64,000 nucleotides of DNA, from positions 1 through 64,000 of the forward strand of contig JABVCE010000016.1 in NCBI GenBank assembly GCA_014905635.1, in the 5' to 3' direction. Positions 9,740 through 21,244 of this stretch are shown one piece after another. Source of the stretch: Scenedesmus sp. PABB004. Taxonomy: Eukaryota. The translations under genes were made by a program, and so were the position numbers. Every line of letters begins with the position of its first letter. Position 1 is the stretch's first letter. Below the pieces are notes generated by a model. It saw only the letters and a list, made by a program, of their open reading frames with translations, did no database searches and was not told the DNA's origin.

Positions 9740-11183
9740 TCACCGCGCCTCGCCGCCGCCGGTGGCCGGGCAGGCGCCGCAGCAGCAGCCGCCGGCGGCG
9801 CGCGCGCGGCGCATGAGCAGCGCCGCCTGCACGATGAGGTGCTGCGCGCCCGCCGCGGCGGCGTCGGCCTCGGTGCGGCGGCGCTTGACGTCGGCGCGCG
9901 CCGCGTCGACCTCCGCCGACTCGTCGAGGCAGTGCGCCACGACCGCCGCCAGCGCGGCGCCGGGGGCGGGCGCGTCAGACCCGGCCAGCAGCAGCTCCAC
10001 GACCGCGCCGGGGCGGCGCCGGCCGAGCTCCTTGGCGATCAGGGCGAAGCAGCGCCCGTGCCCCGCGGCCGCGGCCGTCTTGGCGGCGCGCGCGAGCACG
10101 GCCTCGTGGTCCGCGCCGGGCGGCGCGCGCTCGAGCAGCAGCGCCACGACCGCCGCGTGCCCGCGCCGCGCCGCGAGGTACAGTGGCGTCCAGCCCTGGC
10201 CGTCGGCCGCGAGCGCCGCGGGCGGGCCCGCGGCGTCGAGCAGCACCTCCGCCACGGCCGCATGCCCGCTCCAGGCAGCGAGGTGCATCGGCGTCGAGCC
10301 GTGCGTCGTCGTCGCGGCGGCGCGCCGCGCGGGGGCGCCGGCGAGCAGCAGCCGCACGACGGCCGCGTGGCCCTGCTCCGCGGCGGCGTGCACGGCGGTG
10401 AAGCCCGCGCCGACGGCGCGGCCGACGTCGGCGCCCGCGGCGAGCAGGGCCGTCACGATGCCCGCGTGCCCGCGCCGCGCGGCCATGTACAGGGCGGTGA
10501 AGCCGTCCGCGTCGGCGCCCGCGCAGGCGACCGCGCCCGCGGCCAGCAGCGCCGCGACGACGCCGCCGCGCCCCGACTGCGCCGCGAGGTGCAGCGGGCG
10601 CACCGCGTGCTGCGCGCGCCGCGGCGGCGGCGGCGGCGGCGGCGGCGGTCGCGCGTGAGCTGCGCATGCGCAGCTCGCGCCCTGCGCAGCGCGCGGGGCG
10701 GCAGGGGGCTGGCACGGCCGCGGCGCTGCAGGCAGTGCACACTGCAGCCACGCACGTTGTCCTGCGCCTCCACGCACGCGCCCGCGCCGAGCAGGAGCGC
10801 CACGACGCCCTCGTGCCCGTTCTGGCTGCTCCAGTGCAGCGGCGTCCAGGACTCGTCGTCGCGCGCGTGCACGCTCGCGCCCGCGGCCAGCAACTCGGCG
10901 GCGACCTGGCGCGGGGCGCGGGGCGCGGCGGCGCGCGTGCACCGGCTCGCGCGCGAGCCGGTCGCGGCGTGCGGCGGCGGCTGCGCGCTTGGGGCGTCGC
11001 TCGTACCTCCGCGTGGCCCTGCTGAGCTGCCCACAGCAGCGGCGTCGCGCCGCGCGCGTCGGCGAGCTCCAGGTGCGCGGCGGCGCCGTCCGCGAGCAGC
11101 GCCCGCACGTCGGCCACCACGCCCTTGCGTGCGGCGCGGTGGAGTCTCATGTGCTCGGTGGTTGGGAGCGACATTGCGGACAT
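9740..11183 (-). CDS. Ankyrin-repeat protein, multi-exon
   Basis: Repeated ankyrin consensus: GATPLLWAAQQGH, WTPLHWSSQNGH, GFTALYMAARRGH, GSTPMHLAAWSGH, GWTPLYLAARRGH. Confidence 0.92.
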
Positions 11184-12459
11184 TGAGGGCTGCGGCGCCG
11201 GCGCGGGGCGTCGGCAGCGGCGGCCGCGCTGCCAGCGGCCGCGCCGCGCAATGGCGCGCGCTGGCTGCCACGCCGCCTGGCGCAAAGGGCAGAGAGATCT
11301 GCGTCACACCTCTGGGCCGCCTGCCGTGGCCGGTCGGAGCACGGCCGCGCCACGGCGCCGCCCGCTGGCGCCACCGCGCGCCGGGGCCGATGGCCGCTGT
11401 TTCAAGCTCAGCCCGCACTCTCCGAGTCGCTTCAAGCTTCTTGGGGGGCGTGCCGCGTGATTGCGACATCCGCGCGTGAGGGAGCGCGCGGTGCGGCCCT
11501 GGCGAGCCGGGGCTCGAGCCCCGCCCGCCAGCCCTGTCCCGCGCCGGGCGTCGCCAAGGCCGGCGCAGGTGGCAGAATCGCAAGCCACTGCAACTCCGAG
11601 TTCAGAGCGCGCCCCCGCGCTCGTGTGCAAAAGTTGACTTTGACGGGGGCGGCGCTGCGTCGCGCCGCCCCTGCCCCGCTTGCAGCCCCCGCGCCGCCCA
11701 CGCCTCGCCAGTGCGCTTGAACTCACCTCCGGCGCAGCCCCCGCCAGCTTGACCACGCGCAGCGGGCGCCGCCACCTGCCGCGCTGCGCGCGAGGGAGAG
11801 GCGATCGGCCGGGCCGCGCCGGGCAGCGCGCAGCCGTCCCCGAGCGGTGCGGCACGTCGCAGGCCGCGGGCGGGGCAGCCCAGCGCGGCCCCTGCGCGCT
11901 GGCGCCGGCGCCGAGCAGCTGCGCCCGCCGCCGTGCCGCGCGCCAGGTCTTCTCTGTCTCTCGGCGCGCCGCCCACGAGGAACAGCGCCACACGCCCGGC
12001 CGGCATGCCAGGTGAGGTCCCGCCCGGCAAGGGCGGCGCACGGGTCGCGGCCCGCCGCGCGCCGCGCGGCGCGTGCCACCGCACGCGGCGCAGGGCCCAG
12101 CGCGCGGCGCCGCCGGCCCGGCGGCGACCGTGTCAGGCTCCGCCGCGCGGCCCCACAACCCAGCCCTCCCTACAGCCCGCCCCAGCGCCGCCGCGGCCCG
12201 CGCGACGCCGCCAGCGCGCGCCGCGCTGAGGATGCAGCGCCGGCACGGCGCCGCCGGGCGGCCCGCCGCTCGCCTCGCCCCGGCTGCCGTGGCATCATGA
12301 GCGCCAATGGGCGACGATTCGCGCACGCCGCTCCCGCGAACGGCCGCAGGGCGCCGCGCCTGAGCGGCCCGCAGGATGCACAGGCCCCTCCCCGGCTGCC
12401 CCGCACCCCTTGGATCGCGCGGTGGGCGCCAGGCGGCGCTCTGTGACGCCGGGAGGCCG

Positions 12460-15400
12460 ATGCTGGGCGCCGCGGCCGGCCTGCACGGCCCAGGTGCGCG
12501 GCGGCCGGCCGCAACCGCCGGCGGCAGCAGCGGCGGCAGCGGCGCCAACAATGCGCGCGTCCCGGTTGGCCTGCGCGCTGCCGCGCCGCCCGCGGCGAGC
12601 AGGAGCCTGGCGGAACCGCTGCGGGGCGGCCAGCCGCGCTCCGGCGCGCGCGCACGCACACATCGCTGCCGCTGCTGCCGCGCGCCGCAGGCCTGGCGGC
12701 GGTCGCCGGGCCGCTGTCGCGCGCGCTGGCGCACGCGGCCAGCAGCTTCGGCTGCATGACGCAGCCCAGCACGGCCGGCGCGCGGCGCCTGCTGGGCGCG
12801 CTGGGCGCCGGCGCCGGCCAGCCGGCGCCCAGGCCCCAGGCGCAGCGCCCCAGCCGCGCGGCGCTGCTGCCGCGGGCGGCGCTGCCGCTGGTCGTGGCGG
12901 CTGCCGGCGGCGCGGAGCCCGCAGCGCCTGCCGCGGGCAGGAAGCGGCGGACGGGCAGGGCCGCGGCCCCCGCCCCGCCCGCGCCCGCGCCGCCGCCCGC
13001 AACGCAGCCGGCCGCCGCGCCGGCGCCCGCGCCCGCCAGGGGCGGCCGCGCCGCCACCGCGGGCGCGCCGCGGACGCGTAGGACCGCCCCGCCCGCCCCG
13101 CCCGCGGAGGGGCCGGCCGCGCCGCCGGCGCCCGCGGCCGCGAGGACCGCCAGGGGCCGCCGTGCCGCGGCCGCGGCCGCGCCGCCGCCGGCCGACGCCG
13201 GCGACGCCGGCGCGCTGGCGGCGCGCGCGCGCGCGCTGGCGGCGCGCCTGGAGCGCTACTGGTCGTCATATGACGCCGGCGCACCTGAGGTGGACGACGC
13301 CGTGTACGACTCGGAGGCCGCCGCGCTGCGGCGCCTGCTCGCGGAGCTGCGCCGCGCCGGCGGCGCCGCCGAGGCGGACCGGCTTGAGGCGGCGAGCCCG
13401 CTCGCGCGCGTGGTGCGCGGCGCGGCGCGCGCGTGCCCGCCCCCGCCGCCCCCGCCGTCTGTTCCCCCGCCCCAGGCCCCCGCCCTCCCTCCCTCCTCCC
13501 CCAACCTCCGACCGCCAGGGCTCACCCGCCAACGTCGCGGCGTCGGGCCTGCGGCGGTCGACGCACCCCAGCCCCATGACGAGCCTCGCCGCGGTGCGCG
13601 ACAAGGCCGAGCTGCTGGCCTGGGGCGCCCGCCTCGCGCGCGCGGGCGGGGTCGACGCCGAGGCTGACGCCTGGGTGGTGGAGCCCAAGGTGGACGGCCT
13701 CGCCGTGCGCGCGGTCTACCGGTGAGCCCCGCCCCGCGCCGCGCTGCGCCGCGTGCCGCCGCGCCATGGCTGCGCCGCGACACCGCCCGCGCCGCCAGCG
13801 CCGACGTGCTGCGCGCCCGCGCCGCCCGCGCCGCCCCGCCCGCGCCAGCTGGGGCGTCTTTGCCAGCGCGGCCACGCGCGGCGACGGCGCGGTGGGCGAG
13901 GACGTGAGCCACAACGCCGACCACGACGGCATCGCGGGCCTGCCACGCGTGCTGAAGCTGTCCCGCCTCGGCGGCGCCGACGCCCTGCCCCTGGTCGAGG
14001 TGCGGGGCGAGGTGTTCATCACCGCAGACGACTTTGAAAAGGTGGGCGGGCAGGAGAGAGGGGCCTGGGCGGCGCAGCGCGCGCCGACCTCAGCTCGCGC
14101 TCGAGCGCAAGCGCGGGCCCCAGCAGCGCAGCTGGCTGGGTGCGGCGGCGGCGGCAGCGGACAGGCCGACACGCGCCGCGCGCCGCCGCGCCGGGCGCAG
14201 GTCAACGCCGCGCAGGTCGCGGCGGGCGCGCCGCCGTTTGCGTCGCCGCGCAACGCCGCGGCGGGCAGCCTGCGCCTGCTCGACCCGGACGAGGCCGCGG
14301 CGCGGCGGCTGAGCTTCAAGGCCTATCAGCTCATCCTGCCGGAGGTGCGTGCGCCAGAGCAGGCAGGGGGCAGCCGGGCGGTCGTGCGCACGCGTGCGAT
14401 TGCGGGCTGCGCGGCCGCGCGATGCCGAGCGCCGCCGCCGCCGCCGCGCCGCGCCGCGCGCGCGCAGGGCGCGCCCCGCGCGCCGGCGACCCAGGCAGCG
14501 GCGCTCGCGTGGATGAAGCGCGCGGGCATCGCGACGACCGCGCCGCCGGACGGCGTGGGGCCGTGGCGGGGCTTCTCCGCGGCGGTGGAGGCGGCGGAGC
14601 GCTGGATGGAGGCGCGCGACAGTCTGGGTGCGCGAGGCGCGGGCGCTCAACTGCCGCGCCGCCCCCCGCGCGAGCCAGCGGCCGCCGCCTGGGCGCTGCC
14701 CGCCGCCTGGGCGCTGCCCGCCGCCTGGGCGCTGCCCGCCCGCCCTGCCCCTGCCCCGACCACCCAACGCCGCGGCCGCCCCACCCACACCCCACAGGCT
14801 ACGAGGTGGACGGCGCGGTGCTGAAGCTCGACTCGCTCGCGCAGCAGGCGGCGCTGGGCGTGGACGGCGGGCGCGACCCGCGCTGGGCGGTCGCCTGGAA
14901 GTTCCCCGCCAAGCTCGCGACGACGCGCCTGCTGGGCATTGACTGGAGCGTCGGGCGCAGCGGCGCGGTGCGGCTGCGCCGCACGCGCGCGCGTTGGGCG
15001 GGCGCGCTGCGCGCCGCGCCGTGCCGTGCGCCCTGCTGTGCAGCGGCGCTGCCTGACCGCCGCCGCCGCCACCGCGCGCGCGTTGTCCGCCGCGGCGCAG
15101 CTCACGCCCGTGGCGCACCTCGAGCCGGTCGTGATCGGCGGCGTGACGGTGCAGCACGCGTCGCTGCACAACGTGGGCCAGCTGCGCACGCTGCGCCTGC
15201 GCGGGGGCGACGTCGTCACGGTCAAGCGCGCGGGTGACGTCATCCCCCAGGTGGGCAGGCTGCCCCGCCGGCACACACGCAGCCCAGCGCCGCGTGCACG
15301 CATCGCCCGGCGGCCTGCCCGCGCGCGCCGTGGGCCCACGCGCGCCGCGCCGCGCCGCGCCGCGCCCCGCGCCGCGCGCCGCGCGCAGGTCGTGGGCGTC

Positions 15401-16719
15401 CTGGCCGACGCGCGCCCCGCCGCCGGCGGCGGCGCGCCGTTTGAGGAGCCGTCGCACTGCCCGAGCTGCACGCAGCCGCTGGCCTTCGTCGCGCCCAAAT
15501 CGGCCGGCGCGGGCGGGCACCTGTGGTGCGCCAACCCGGCCTGCCCCGCGCAGCAGCTTGCCCGCGTGCAGCACTTTGTCGCCGTCTGCGTCGAGGGCAT
15601 CGGCGACGCGACGGCGCAGGAGCTCTGGGCGCGCGGCTGGCTGCACACGCCGGCGGGGCTCTACCGCCTCACCGCGGTGCGCCGCCCGCGCCCGCGGCGC
15701 TGCGCATGCCGGCGCCGCGCCCGCCGGCCGCGCGCGCCGCCGCCGCGCCGCCCAGCCGAGCCGAGCGCGAACCCGCGCCCACGCCGCGCCGCGCCGCCGC
15801 GCAGGCCGACCTGCTGACGCTGCCGGGCGTGCGCGAGCGCAAGGCCGCCAAGATGCTGGCCGCCATCGACGCCAGCCGCCGCATGAGCCTCGCCACGCTG
15901 CTGGCCGGCCTCGGCATCCCGTGAGCGCGCGCGCCACGCCGCGCCGCGCTGCGCCGCGCCGTGCGCCCGCGCCGCACCGTGAGCCGACCGCGCCGCCGCT
16001 GGTCGGCCGGCCGCAGGGTCGTGGGCGCCCGGCAGGCGGCCAACCTGGCGGCGCGCTACAAAAGCATGAAGGCCCTGGAGCTGGCGGTCAACAGCGCCGC
16101 GACGAGCGCCGGCGCGGGCACGGCCGCCGCGGCCGCCGCGGCCGCGGCCGGCGCGGGTGCGGCCACGGCCGCGGGCGGCGCGCCGCCGCCGCCGATCGGC
16201 GGCGTGCTGGGCGCGAGCCTCGCCGCCTGGTTCAGCCACGCCGACAGCAAGCTGCTGCTCAACGGGCTGCGCCAGGGCGGCGTCGCGTGCTGCCAGGAGG
16301 ACCCCGCCGCGGCCGAGGCCGGCGGCGCGGCCGCGCTCGAGGCCGCCGGCGCGGCGCCCGTGCCCGGCGGCATCCCGGGCCTGACCGGGCCCGGCTTCCG
16401 CGACGTCGCGCCGCTCGAGGGCATCTCCATCTGCGTGACGGGCAGCCTCGGCGCCGCGCGGCTCTCGCGCCGCGAGCTCGCAGCGTCGTTCATCGAGGAC
16501 AAGGGCGGCGAGGTGCACGGCAGCGTCAAGCGCACCACGCGCTGGCTCGTCACGGGGCTGCGCCCGGGCGCGGCCAAGCTCGCGGCCGCGGCCAAGTGGG
16601 GCACGCGCGTGCTCGACGAGGCGGGGTTCATGGAGGAGGTCGAGCGCCTCACGCTCGCCAAGCAGGGCTACGTCGCCGACGGCGAGCGCGGCGCGACGTC
16701 GGGCGCGTTCCGCGTCTGA
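12460..16719 (+). CDS. ligA: NAD+-dependent DNA ligase (LigA family), multi-exon, with a long transit-peptide-like N-terminus
   Basis: Domain Ia [12 protein letters not shown]; motif [63 protein letters not shown]-fold [31 protein letters not shown]4 zinc finger CPSC..CANPAC; HhH motifs; BRCT ([21 protein letters not shown]). Start inferred (ATG 12460 or 12376, spliced 12493/12691); TGA at 16719. Confidence 0.95.
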
Positions 16720-17012
16720 GGGCCGGCGGCGCGGGCGCGTGCGCGCCTCGCGCCGGCGCTTGGGCGCGGCGCGGGGCGCGCGGTTCAGTTCGGCGCGGCC
16801 GGCGGCCCGCAATAACGAGCATCGCGGCGAGGTCGGGGCCAGGGGCACGCGGGCGGGCATTTGCCATTGTTTGCATTGCGGCGGCTGCGGGCGCGGCCAC
16901 GAATAAGCGGCGCTGAAACACGCGCCGCCGGGGGCGGGGGCGGGGGCGCGGGTTGCAACGCTGGCCTGCACTCCCCTGCGAGCAGCCCCGCCCCGCCCAG
17001 CCAGCGGCCAGT

Positions 17013-19070
17013 TCAGCGCGCGCCCGTCGCCCCGGTGCTGCCACGACCACCGCCGCCGCCGCTGGCCAGCGCCGCCAGCTGCGCACGCGCCGCGCCGAGC
17101 AGGCGCGCGTTGACCGCCCGCTCACGCGCGTCCATGAGTGCGTCGTCGTCCAGCGCCTGTGTAGCGAGTGGGGCAGGGCAGGGGCGCTCAGCGCTCAGCG
17201 CTGGTGGCTCAGCGCTGGCGGCTCCGCAGACGGCTCGGGCGGCGCTGCGGCGCGAGCGCGCACCTGGCGCGCCTCTGCGTCGGCGATCTGCGCCGCCAGC
17301 GCGGCTGCGTACGCGGCGTTGCGCGCCGCGCGCTGCGCGGCGCCGAGCGCCTCGCTGGCGGCGACCGCCTCCAGCTCCGCCTGCATCTCCACGCGCGCGC
17401 GCGCCTGCTCCGCGCGCGCCGCCTCCTGCGCCGCGTTCCTCGCAGCGGCCGCGGCCGCCGCGCACGCCCGGCGGTCGGCCGCCGCCGCCGCGCGCTTCTC
17501 CAGCTTGGCGGCGTGCTTCGCCTGCGTGCGTTGGCGGCGGCGGCGTCAGCACGCGCGGCGCGCCCTCCGCCGCCGCCGGCTCTCTCGCAGTCGGCTCTCG
17601 TCGCACCTCCGCCTCCGCCGCCGCGCGCGCCTCGCTCGCTGCAATGAGCCGCTCCTCGCGCTCCGCGCGGCTGCGGCTCTCCGCCACCGCCGCGGCGCCC
17701 GCCTGCGCGCACGCCGCGCGGCGCGGCCGGGCAGGAGCGCGGCGGTTGTGCGCCGTGCCGCCGGCGCTGGGCCCTGCAAGGGGGCCCACGGTGCGTGTGC
17801 ACAGGCCGCCCCGCCCTCACCGCACCTGCTCCGTGCGCGCCGCAATGTTGGCGCGGAAGGCGTCCAGCGCCGCCTCGCGCGCGGCCTCCTGGCGCGCCAG
17901 CGTGCTGCGCGGCGGCGTCGGCGGCGGTGGCGGCGGCGGCGGCGGCAGCGGGCAGCAGGGTGCGCGTCAGGCGCTGTGGAGCTCAGCACGCAGGCCTGCG
18001 CACGCCCGGCGGGCCAGGGCTGACCCCTTCCGGGCGCCGGTCAGGGCCGCGCCTGATGGTCTCCCGCATCAGCTCCTCGTCGCGCCGCTGCTGCTCCGCG
18101 GCCGCGGCGCGCCTGGCCTCCAGCGCCGCCGCGTTTGCGGCGCGCGCCACGCCCGCGTCGGCGCGCGCGCCCGCGGCCTTGGCCGCGGCCGCGGCCCGCG
18201 CCGCGGCGGCCTGCTGGTCGAGCGCGGCCAGCAGCCGTGCGCCCTCGCGCGCCTTCTTGCCCGCCGCGCGCGCGCGGGCGGCCTCGGCGGCCGCACACTG
18301 CGGCGGCGGCAGCGGGGGCGCGCGGGGCGCTGAGCTGCGCTGCAGCGCCGCCAGCCAGCATTGCTTGCGCCCACACTCGACACCGTCAGCCGCGCGCGTC
18401 GGCAGGCTTGACTTCGGCGCACCTGCTTCTCCTGCTCAGCTTTGAGCCGCCGCCCAGCCTCGGCCGCTGCCGCGGCTCGGCCCGCCTCCTCGGCGGCGTG
18501 CGCGGCCACGTCGGCGAGCGTAGCCGCGAGCTCGGCGGCGCGCGCCTCGGCCTCAGCGCGCCGGGCGGCCTCGTGCTCGCCCAGCTGCGCGTCGAGCGCC
18601 GCGCGCTGCCGCGCCTGGGCCTCGGTCTTGGCCGCGCCGCGGGCCGCGGCCTCCGCGCCCGCGAGCGACGCCTCAAGCTGGTCCAGCACGGCCCACTCGC
18701 TGCCAGCCTTCACCTTGACACGCGCAGCGTGGTGGTGCACCGCGCCGCCGCCCGCGGCGCCGCCGCCAAACTCGGTGGCGTACAGGGACGCCGGCGGCGC
18801 CTCCAGCAGCTCTGGCGGCGGCACGGCCGCCGCGCCGCCGCGCGGGGGCGGGCGGCGCGCGGCTGCGCGCAGGTCGGCGTGGCGCCGCTGCGGCGATGCG
18901 TGCTGCTTTGCGCGGCTGGGCAGGTCGGAGGTGCCAGGCTGGGCGCGTTGCACGTCGATGAGGGTCGTTCGGTGCTTGGCAGGGCCGAGCGAGACGCGAG
19001 TCAGCGCGCCGGACGCCAGCGCCGCGGCGAGCCGCTCCTGCTTGCCCTCCAGCTCCCCCGGGCGCCCCAT
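17013..19070 (-). CDS. Ala/Glu/Arg-rich coiled-coil protein of unknown function, multi-exon
   Basis: ATG 19070 (MGRPGELEGKQERL), SEWAVLDQLE followed by long helical heptad-like exons with GT-AG boundaries. Confidence 0.6.
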
Positions 19071-19228
19071 GGCGCGTGCGCGTGTTGGAGAGCGGCAGCG
19101 AGCTAGCGGCACCGCTGTCCGCCGGGCGTGCTGCTCGCTGCTGCTGTCGCGCGCCGCCGCGGTCCTCAGGCGGCGCTGCCGGGGCGCGGGAACGTGGCGG
19201 GCGGGGCTCACGGGGCGTGTGGCTTCGG

Positions 19229-19233
19229 TTACA
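19229..19233 (-). promoter_or_regulatory. Putative TGTAA polyadenylation signal of the SDR gene
   Basis: TTACA on the plus strand about 120 bp downstream of the SDR stop; TGTAA is the chlorophyte poly(A) signal. Confidence 0.5.
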
Positions 19234-19352
19234 CGCGCCTGACCGGGGCGCCGGGCGCGCGCGGGGGAGCCTGAACCCGCCGTTGACTGGCCGGCCGCCC
19301 GTTTCGCTCGGCCATCGGCACGCGTGCCTGGGCCGCCCAGGCCATCATCGCG

Positions 19353-20934
19353 CTACTTGGCCATCGCGCGCGCGGTGCCGCCGCCGTCAACGGTGAGTGT
19401 GGCGCCCGTGCAGTAGTCGCTGCCGGCGGACGCGAAGAAGAGGATGGGTCCGACCAGGTCCTCCGGCTCTGCGAGGCGCCCCAGGGGGATGCGGCTCTTG
19501 ATATACGCCACCTTCTCCGGCGTGTCCAGGACCTTCTGCGCGCGGCCGCGGCGGCGTGGTGCGGGTGCGCGTGCTGGGCGGCAGCGCCGCCGGCCCGCCC
19601 GCCCGGGCGGCGCGCGTTCAGCGCGGCGCGGCGCGGCGCCCGCCCGCCCGCCGCGGCGCGCACGGTCGTGAACGGGGTGTTGGTCGCGCCGGGCAGCACA
19701 ACGTTCACGTTGATGCCGTCCCCCGCCCACGCGAGGGCGAGGCTCTTGGCCAGCGGCACCAGCGCGCCCTTTGACGCGCAGTAGGCAGCTTGCGACGCGT
19801 AGCCATAATTGGCTGGCGTCGCGGCGGCGCGGCAGGACCGCGCATGGGCGTCGCCGCCGGCACGCCCCGCTGCGGCCCCGCCGCGGCTCTGCGCGCGCAC
19901 CTGCGATGCTGCTGGTGATGACCACCTTGCCGCCCCGCACGCGCAGCAGCGGGTACGCCGCGCGCACGGTGTGGAAGGTGCCGTCCACGTTGGTGGCAAA
20001 GATGTTCCTCCAGTTCTCCTCGTCCGTGTCCTGCGGCAGCTGCGGGCGCGCGCGCGCAGCGGCGGGCGGGCGGCGGCGCGGCGCTCTGCGTGCGGCTCGT
20101 GCGGCTCGCGCGGCGGCTCGCGCGGCGTGCAGCGTGTCGCCAGGGCCGGCGGCTGGCCAGTCCACCTGCATCTCGCCGAGGATGCCCGCGTTGGCGACGA
20201 GCACCTCCAGCCGCCCAAAGCTCCTGCGCGGCGCGGCGCGGCGCGGCGGGTGGGCCGCGCAGTCGCGCGAGCGGCCGCCCAGCACTGGGCCAGCGCGGCG
20301 CCGCGCCGCGCGCGCCTCTCGACGGCGCCCATCGCGGCGTCGACGCTCGCCGGGTCGCGGACGTCGCACGCGACCGCCTCGGCGCGCACGCCCAGGCCGC
20401 GCAGCTCGCTCACGAGCGCGTCGCACGCGCCGGGCCGCAGGTCCGCCGCCACCACGTCCGCGCCGCACCTGCGCCGCGCCGCGCGCGCGCGTGAGGGCGC
20501 GAGGGCGCGCCGCAGGCGGCCGCGCGTGCTGGCGAGTGACCCACGCTGCGCGGCTGCGCGCACTTGGCAAGGCCGAGGCAGGTCGCGGCGCCCACGCCGC
20601 CGCCGGCGCCGGTCACCAGCGCGACCTTGCCCTCCAGCCGGAAGATGCTGCGCGGCAAGCGCCGGGCGGCGGGCGGCGTCGGCGAGCAGCGCCGCCGGCG
20701 GTGTCGCCGCCCGCCGGCGGGGCGCTATTCTGAGAGAGCGACCGCTGACCTGTCCAGGTAGGCGTGCACGTCGTCGGGGCTCCTGTGCTTGGCGTCCACG
20801 GCAAGGCAGCGGGAGTCGGCCTGCTGCCCTCCCCGTGCCCGGCCAATGATCGCGGCGCGCGCGCCGACCGCGATCGGAGCTGCTGCCGAGCCAGCCAGGC
20901 CGAGCAGGCCGGCGCGCGCGAGTGCGGGAAGCAT
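19353..20934 (-). CDS. Classical short-chain dehydrogenase/reductase, probable organelle presequence
   Basis: LEGKVALVTGAGGGVG, LVANAGI, catalytic S and YCASK, NVVLPG, IPLGRLAEPED, TGATLTVDGG. Confidence 0.93.
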
Positions 20935-21244
20935 GCCTGCGCTCGAGATTGACGACGTGCCTGGTCCGGTCCCGGGCTGCGCGCGTGTGCGGTCGCGCTG
21001 CGCTGCGGGGCAGCGGAGCTGCTCTGGAGGACCTGCCGCAGCTCCGGGACGGCCTGTAGCCTGAACCTGACGGCAGCACGCTGCGCCGGCCGCCGCGCCC
21101 GCTGAGTTCACAGTGTGTCGGCGCACTCAGTTCCCAAGTGCTGCCTACCCCGCTCGTTGGTACATGCGCCGCCCAAATCACAGGGCGGCGCGCCGCTGCT
21201 GTCACCGCTCCTGCTGCCGCCGCCGCCGCCGCGGGCGCCGCGGC

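Follow-up and report, generated by a model that had tools for sequence, protein, structure and literature searches.

The stretch of DNA analysed here (the window) comprises 64,000 nt of the genome of the green alga Scenedesmus sp. PABB004 (contig JABVCE010000016.1, positions 1 to 64,000 of the forward strand; assembly GCA_014905635.1), and it carries a gene on the plus strand, ligA (12460-16719), predicted to encode a bacterial-type NAD+-dependent DNA ligase. The gene consists of 11 exons and 10 introns, with a coding sequence (CDS) of 2883 nt that specifies 960 amino acids and contains no internal stop codon. All ten introns are of the GT-AG type and are 96-197 nt long, with donors of the form GTGHG and CAG acceptors, in agreement with the roughly ten host-style introns described in the initial annotation; frame-breaking joins, which would have pointed to a pseudogene, were checked for in the model and none was found. 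GC content in the CDS was 0.80, 0.64 and 0.97 at codon positions 1, 2 and 3, respectively, whereas it was flat in the introns (0.86-0.87). Because of this difference, the coding pattern goes beyond what chance would produce, in surroundings that are themselves about 70-84% G+C across the window. Eight of the nine exon joins in the conserved part of the protein fall inside segments that are colinear with Escherichia coli LigA and with the Tetradesmus obliquus protein P0014, and the remaining join, at residue 433, falls in a loop of variable length. A pseudogene was ruled out, as the frame is free of stops and frameshifts. The conceptual translation is identical, letter for letter, to the database protein P0001 (NCBI 'ligA [Scenedesmus sp. 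PABB004]'), and the gene had therefore been annotated beforehand. An exon-wise search of this genome with PF01653, the count from which is a lower bound, matched the ligA locus only and found no second LigA copy.

To judge from its sequence, the protein is a member of the LigA-type NAD+-dependent DNA ligase family. It passed the cut-offs of two NCBIfam LigA models (NF005932, 504.5 vs. 369 bits; TIGR00575, 480.9 vs. 444.45) and failed that of the LigB model (148 vs. 498). Pfam matches were obtained, in order, for the adenylation domain (residues 263-524), the OB fold (527-603), helix-hairpin-helix (HhH) elements (660-709, below the cut-off, and 720-750) and the BRCT domain (859-932). Domain Ia and the C4 zinc finger had zero Pfam matches in this protein and were assigned because of residue conservation, together with predicted helices at residues 182-206, 214-233 and 237-246. 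The claim that every LigA module is present in order was thus borne out, by Pfam and NCBIfam for the adenylation, OB, HhH and BRCT parts and by conserved residues for the other two. This domain order, the role of domain Ia and the three-step reaction chemistry of LigA are described in PMC7470946.

The modules are spread over the exons as follows. Exon 1 (12460-12493) holds the annotated start, with 11 codons and one base, and exon 2 (12691-13412) carries the remainder of an N-terminal extension, to about 13199, and then domain Ia (about 13200-13412). Exon 3 (13519-13721) contributes adenylation-domain sequence with motif I (EPKVDG) and the codon of the catalytic Lys309 at 13687-13689; it is followed by exon 4 (13849-14041), with R330 (E. 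coli R136) and the motif III residue E374 (E173), exon 5 (14201-14344), with the RNAAAG region, R401, R409 and Y426, and exon 6 (14468-14627), a variable part of the adenylation domain that can be aligned with the E. coli LigA of 2OWO. Motifs IV and V (D490, K495, K520) and the start of the OB fold (R539) are encoded by exon 7 (14798-14967), and further OB-fold sequence, with R585 and a V-I pair, by exon 8 (15101-15250; PF03120, E 1.6e-18). Exon 9 (15389-15676) includes the C4 zinc finger (C616, C619, C639 and C644; 15458-15544), a three-residue deletion and the first HhH, and exon 10 (15805-15920) the second HhH, with Arg698 at the position of E. coli glycine 489. The last exon (16017-16719) encodes the third HhH, an Ala-rich insert (about 16084-16191), the fourth HhH (G788), a linker and the BRCT domain (16411-16632), and ends with the stop codon.

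Among solved structures, E. coli LigA (2OWO, sequence E-value 1.2e-96) is the best relative of the protein, and a Foldseek comparison of the predicted model with the E. coli LigA-DNA structure 2OWO gave an E-value of 1.6e-47 and a TM score of 0.74 by target. In the AlphaFold2 (AF2) model, residues 1-180 are disordered and a helical hairpin occupies the position of domain Ia. Y205, D214, Y217 and D218 of domain Ia align with E. coli Y22, D32, Y35 and D36, which we take to be the tyrosine pair and the two aspartates that hold the nicotinamide mononucleotide (NMN) half of NAD+. Adenylation motifs I, III, IV and V are present (E307, K309, corresponding to K115, D311, R330, E374, D490, K495 and K520), R539, R585 and the four cysteines are also in place relative to E. 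coli LigA, and three of the four HhH glycines are kept (G664, G730 and G788). We counted residues over 21 aligned sequences (rows) of the green clade described below and 512 non-green rows, leaving out the partial sequence P0015. In E. coli numbering, E113, K115, D117, R136, E173, R200, R208, D285, R333, the four cysteines and R614 are invariant in the green rows (21 of 21), K290, K314 and R379 are kept in 20, and the domain Ia residues Y22, D32 and D36 in 19, the other two models being without an N-terminus. A search of the ESM Atlas again gave a LigA assignment, with one 53-member cluster in which the commonest known phylum was Chlorophyta. In domain order, catalytic and NAD+-binding residues and fold, the protein is like bacterial LigA (E. 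coli 2OWO and 5TT5; TIGR00575, NF005932). It differs in being nuclear, in having 10 introns, a 180-aa disordered extension and three ATP-dependent ligase loci alongside, and in carrying a three-residue deletion before the first HhH with loss of R446, an Asp at domain Ia position 23, an Arg at position 489 and the Ala-rich insert.

Protein, six-sequence profile and name searches led to 22 proteins, which group as a single clade in a FastTree of 530 rows (support 1.0, stem 0.23); isoforms and cluster-mates had been left out before this tree, and one row, L140 from genome G037, was included only in that FastTree, with no claim depending on it. A green clade of 22 rows was also recovered in another tree (FastTree support 0.999), and IQ-TREE supported it with Shimodaira-Hasegawa-like approximate likelihood ratio test (SH-aLRT) values of 100, 100 and 99, using 18, 11 and 12 green rows, respectively; all IQ-TREE supports reported here are SH-aLRT values from quick searches. 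The 14 named members are this protein and those of Tetradesmus obliquus (P0014), Hariotina reticulata, Monoraphidium minutum, Chlamydomonas eustigma, C. schloesseri, C. sp. UWO 241, Edaphochlamys debaryana, Volvox africanus, V. reticuliferus, Pleodorina starrii, [Myrmecia] bisecta, Chara braunii and Marchantia polymorpha, spanning Chlorophyceae, one trebouxiophyte, Chara and Marchantia; one further member is a transcript model assembled with Trinity. Seed plants and ferns are not represented among the 14, absence from those groups not having been specifically searched for. Streptophytes and chlorophytes sort within the clade largely according to the species tree, and because a single clade holds both, the green LigA gene dates back to the chlorophyte-streptophyte split or earlier. 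The annotated green proteins (Marchantia BBN00442.1, 'DNA ligase (NAD+)'; Chara GBG77019.1; Chlamydomonas schloesseri KAG2450037.1; Tetradesmus P0014) share the clade, the motifs and, in complete models, the extension, whereas extension length and inserts differ among them and the Asp at residue 206 occurs only in the Scenedesmus copy. We consider ligA to be an intact and vertically inherited gene of the green lineage, and probably one that is Archaeplastida-wide.

These data leave hardly any room for a recent, lineage-specific transfer from a bacterium or a giant virus, or for a bacterial contaminant, and the 'recent' and 'contaminant' versions are already contradicted. It is true that the best non-green matches are bacterial (Chloroflexota and Thermoleophilia, 39-45% identity) and that long phage branches adjoin the clade, but the gene has ten spliceosomal introns and 21 relatives that share a long stem and reach to Chara and Marchantia. 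Of the 512 non-green rows, 490 have a His442-to-Gly455 distance of 13 residues, which none of the 22 green rows shows; in these it is 10 residues (11 rows), 12 (eight rows), 11 (one row) or extended by long inserts (two rows). Viral-contig ligases with a full frame, taken from 44 loci, gave none inside the green clade, in trees that included no named giant-virus LigA. Contamination was ruled out by the host-type introns, the eukaryotic-type neighbours and the green clade; the initial annotation's view of a domesticated nuclear gene accordingly stands, given the introns, the ankyrin and short-chain dehydrogenase genes nearby and the single PF01653 locus found.

In the best trees, the green clade lies outside both the cyanobacterial-type rows (four) and the alphaproteobacterial rows (5-10). 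Approximately unbiased (AU) tests on 36 rows, from which the long rows P0237, P0276 and P0293 and other green rows were left out, rejected neither a grouping with cyanobacteria (p 0.246, with four cyanobacterial-type rows only) nor one with alphaproteobacteria (p 0.107). The phylogeny proposed in the initial annotation therefore produced one green clade and did not separate an endosymbiotic from a horizontal source. The cyanobacterial label was given because a gene neighbouring L165 is named from Synechococcaceae and because one copy comes from a Microcystis phage. Chloroflexota/Thermoleophilia were nearest in two IQ-TREE trees (94 and 89, unstarred). After the addition of jumbo-phage ligases, long phage branches adjoined the green clade at 93, unstarred, a grouping that is probably due to long-branch attraction. 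A prokaryote-like LigA of 702 aa, P0372, was sister to the green clade in FastTree (0.90 and 0.88), although not stably so in IQ-TREE. Gene 81L of Microcystis phage MaMV-CH02 (L174:822-2831), annotated as hypothetical, is a full-length LigA of cyanobacterial type.

A distribution over glaucophytes, red algae and green plants is typical of plastid functions. The order of tip labels on p. 1 of supplementary file 5 of PMC9450145, where branches are not visible, places two glaucophytes, five red algae, Picocystis, Prasinococcus, Tetraselmis and Physcomitrella in one consecutive block, whose edges carry single chlorarachniophyte, dinoflagellate and diatom labels. Cyanobacteria, nucleocytoplasmic large DNA viruses (NCLDV), Amoebozoa and Mamiellophyceae are listed outside that block, the NCLDV labels forming a separate one. 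As far as label order goes, these tips point to three or more lineages of eukaryotic LigA: Archaeplastida; Mamiellophyceae plus groups of the SAR assemblage (stramenopiles, alveolates and Rhizaria), after alphaproteobacteria; and Amoebozoa plus a mitochondrial copy from Paulinella. We infer that our 22-protein clade is the green part of an Archaeplastida-wide LigA lineage and that LigA of the Ostreococcus type is a different one.

Other eukaryotic LigA genes have been reported. NAD+-dependent ligases are described as sporadic in eukaryotes, in a study whose 2009 tree includes Ostreococcus lucimarinus and Dictyostelium (PMC2806865); LigA of Ostreococcus/Micromonas and Dictyostelium is likewise eukaryotic and nuclear, and by tip-label order apparently belongs to different lineages, mamiellophyceans accounting for none of the 14 named clade members. 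Paulinella has nuclear ligA copies, one with a chromatophore transit peptide and one mitochondrial, which have been proposed to serve organelle DNA replication (PMC9450145, PMC7826189). They are nuclear, as is the gene studied here, and label order alone places them with Mamiellophyceae/stramenopiles/alveolates or with Amoebozoa and not in the Physcomitrella/red/glaucophyte block. In Ulva and Bryopsidales, ligA open reading frames (ORFs) occur in plastid genomes (PMC4388391, PMC5888179); these are LigA-type and chloroplast-associated, but they are free-standing and patchy, lie in plastid DNA (with Rickettsia-like best matches in Ulva) and are not nuclear intron-bearing genes. The Scenedesmus gene itself is therefore not new, having been annotated, eukaryotic LigA is known from trees, and a nuclear, organelle-targeted LigA has precedent. 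The surprise that the initial annotation saw in a nuclear LigA has accordingly gone, with orthologues from chlorophytes to Chara and Marchantia, several of them annotated as 'DNA ligase (NAD+)', and eukaryotic LigA in the 2009 tree. The initial annotation had named well-characterised orthologues across chlorophytes as what would remove the novelty; such orthologues do exist, and no characterisation of them was found in the literature searched. We found no experimental study of a green-lineage LigA in the openly readable literature; localisation data could exist in papers behind subscription or in bioRxiv supplements (organelle proteome tables, for example).

The long Ala/Arg/Pro-rich extension noted at the outset was confirmed: it is about 180 aa long, in frame, predicted to be disordered and has a GC content at third codon positions (GC3) of 0.96. 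The DxxYD motif of domain Ia consequently lies at residue 214, compared with a median of 34 in the 261 non-green rows that have the motif. The first acidic residue of the protein is residue 87. Counting from the annotated Met, at most one acidic residue is found in the first 40 positions of 12 of 19 green proteins and of one of 339 non-green LigA proteins (P0014, P0230 and P0231, which are without an N-terminus, were left out). From an internal Met, Met34 (12756), the Scenedesmus protein has six Arg/Lys and no acidic residue in 40 positions. The N-terminus may thus be called presequence-like, and the organelle is not specified by it.

We identified three ATP-dependent ligase loci in this genome (G000), on contigs C46, C1 and C76, which from their motifs we take to be LIG1-like, LIG6-like (with a nuclease-type N-terminal part) and LIG4-like, respectively. 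The LIG1-like protein starts with what is presumably a PIP-box-like motif. Its gene (L175, C46, minus strand) has 35 open upstream codons without an ATG, and a spliced in-frame presequence was looked for and none was found. At about 265620-265850, this gene also shows an upstream ORF of four codons, the stop of which overlaps with the main ATG, and likely a 187-nt intron in the 5′ untranslated region (UTR), without an in-frame presequence, unlike Arabidopsis LIG1. The LIG6-like gene (L176, C1:1911500-1921400) joins the nuclease-type part to an ATP ligase, with a long Ala-Gln-Gln repeat in the linker.

We consider it likely that ligA encodes an organelle-imported ligase in which domain Ia would assist the adenylation of Lys309 from NAD+ and which would seal nicks in plastid DNA, mitochondrial DNA or both. 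We favour this reading because the catalytic residues are kept, the N-termini are acid-poor, the LIG1-like gene is without a presequence and Paulinella provides a precedent. Within it, delivery to both organelles is plausible while falling short of an even chance, delivery to the plastid only is a more tentative option, and delivery to the mitochondrion only is doubtful. The spliced mRNA would be translated in the cytosol, and the acid-free, disordered extension, beginning at Met1 or Met34, would direct the protein to the plastid, the mitochondrion or both. Given the conserved residues and the known chemistry of LigA, domain Ia would then grip the nicotinamide half of NAD+, Lys309 would be adenylated and NMN released. 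With the zinc finger as a brace, the nicked duplex would be clamped by the adenylation, OB and HhH domains, adenosine monophosphate (AMP) would be transferred to the 5′ phosphate and the nick would be sealed. The proposed task of the enzyme is the joining of lagging-strand fragments and repair patches in organelle DNA, with LIG1, LIG4 and the LIG6-like ATP ligase serving the nucleus.

Several observations weigh against this reading, and the first of them concern the protein itself. The AF2 model, built from six sequences, is of middling quality (predicted local distance difference test 63.8, predicted TM score 0.40). Domain Ia position 23 is occupied by Asp206, whereas 509 of 512 non-green rows have Tyr, His, Phe or Trp there; this Asp is unique among the 21 green rows and is found in none of the 512 non-green rows. 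We assume that position 23 is secondary and not defining. R446 is lost in the short deletion before the first HhH, in a region that is deleted or replaced across the green clade (425 of the 512 non-green rows have Arg and 52 Lys), and Arg698 replaces G489, which is Gly in 341 of the 512 non-green rows. R446, R487 and G489 have been called essential in E. coli LigA; positions 487 and 489 are variable among non-green rows too. The unique Asp206, Arg698 in place of an HhH glycine and the Ala-rich insert before the fourth HhH could mean that the family is functional and that this copy is weakened or a poor user of NAD+, through domain Ia position 23 and altered HhH contacts. We regard this as highly unlikely, since the two domain Ia tyrosines, the two aspartates, all catalytic motifs and the four cysteines are intact, GC3 is 0.97 throughout, and the Tetradesmus protein (63-64% identity) has a similar HhH change and insert.

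A second set of opposing points concerns the N-terminus. In seven of the 19 green proteins the N-terminus is not poor in acidic residues, only one Arg/Lys occurs among residues 1-40 of the Scenedesmus protein as annotated, and composition cannot separate plastid from mitochondrial targeting. Moreover, the start site is ambiguous to judge from the DNA: ATG 12460, whose exon 1 has a donor at 12494 scoring 11.4 with a matrix built from ligA's own splice sites, ATG 12376 (adding 28 aa) and a micro-exon at 12005-12011 with a strong donor at 12012 can all be joined to exon 2 in frame, the latter two being putative alternative 5′ ends within 12005-12459 (plus strand). Additional 5′ exons, or an intron in the 5′ UTR of ligA, are suggested for the same region (12005-12175, plus strand) by the ATG with its strong donor (12012) together with sites resembling acceptors at 12093 and about 12175. 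The single basic residue in the annotated first 40, together with clusters of Arg/Lys past residue 90, would fit a nuclear or cytosolic role, for example in repair, with the basic Ala/Pro/Arg extension acting as a localisation or DNA-binding tail. Such a role appears very unlikely to us in view of the acid-poor, Arg/Leu-rich starts of 12 of 19 orthologues, the three ATP-ligase loci available for nuclear work and the organelle targeting peptides of the Paulinella LigA copies.

Lastly, organelle ligation could be performed by ATP-dependent enzymes. An organellar location has been predicted for plant LIG6 and for a Chlamydomonas ATP ligase (PMC4166229), and spliced N-terminal extensions are possible for the LIG6-like gene of this genome. 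LigA might then be an organellar but dispensable back-up or repair enzyme, with replicative ligation carried out by the LIG6-like ligase or a LIG1 isoform. Arabidopsis and Cyanidioschyzon, which are described with ATP ligases only (PMC4166229, PMC6728418), would agree with this, as would the three ATP-ligase loci and the drift in the HhH region of ligA. We nevertheless find it improbable. The LIG6 extensions would require introns of 499-719 nt, compared with 96-197 nt in ligA, and the upstream LIG6 frame has a GC3 of 0.70-0.95, mostly at or below 0.85, compared with 0.97 in the ligA CDS. In addition, the LIG1-like gene lacks a presequence, and ligA has been retained with its catalytic residues from Chlorophyceae to Marchantia.

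If organelle import is correct, the gene bears on a gap in the description of organelle replication. Published lists of organellar ligases contain the LIG1 type only, and the plastid ligase is called unclear (PMC4166229, PMC3914683). Green algae and mosses are given LIG1-type ligases only, several of them scored as nuclear or untargeted, and most green-plant organelle replication enzymes are listed as dual-targeted (PMC4166229). A review of plant repair confines NAD+ ligases to eubacteria (PMC6728418). Plant and algal LIG1 and LIG6, to which organelle ligation has been assigned or for which it is predicted (PMC4166229), have another cofactor and domain set and are encoded separately in this genome. 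LigA, conserved and bearing a transit-like extension, is a candidate for the plastid-ligase gap; as a plastid ligase, it would add a part to the organelle replisome and tie that replisome to NAD+. We can also envisage, as a speculative and on balance unlikely scenario, that an Archaeplastida-wide LigA was acquired from a non-cyanobacterial prokaryote or phage around the time of plastid origin and that plastid DNA, often along with mitochondrial DNA, ancestrally relied on it for replicative ligation. Glaucophytes, red and green algae and bryophytes would have kept this enzyme, and ATP ligases would have taken its place in Cyanidioschyzon and flowering plants. If so, this history would account for the failure so far to identify the plastid ligase, and plastid DNA ligation would depend on the stromal NAD+ pool.

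The genes around ligA include neighbours of eukaryotic type. An intron-containing ankyrin-repeat gene (9740-11180, minus strand; Pfam Ank_2, E 2e-27) is arranged head-to-head with ligA and shows no sign of a functional link to it. Downstream, a convergent gene (16900-19350, minus strand) has Ala/Glu/Arg-rich, coiled-coil-like exons, and a Pfam search of its frame at 18069-19349 gave zero matches. An open frame at 19229-21241 (minus strand) matches short-chain dehydrogenases (adh_short, E 1e-15). Within ligA itself, intron 6 contains an 18-nt unit in three head-to-tail copies (14685-14740, plus strand).

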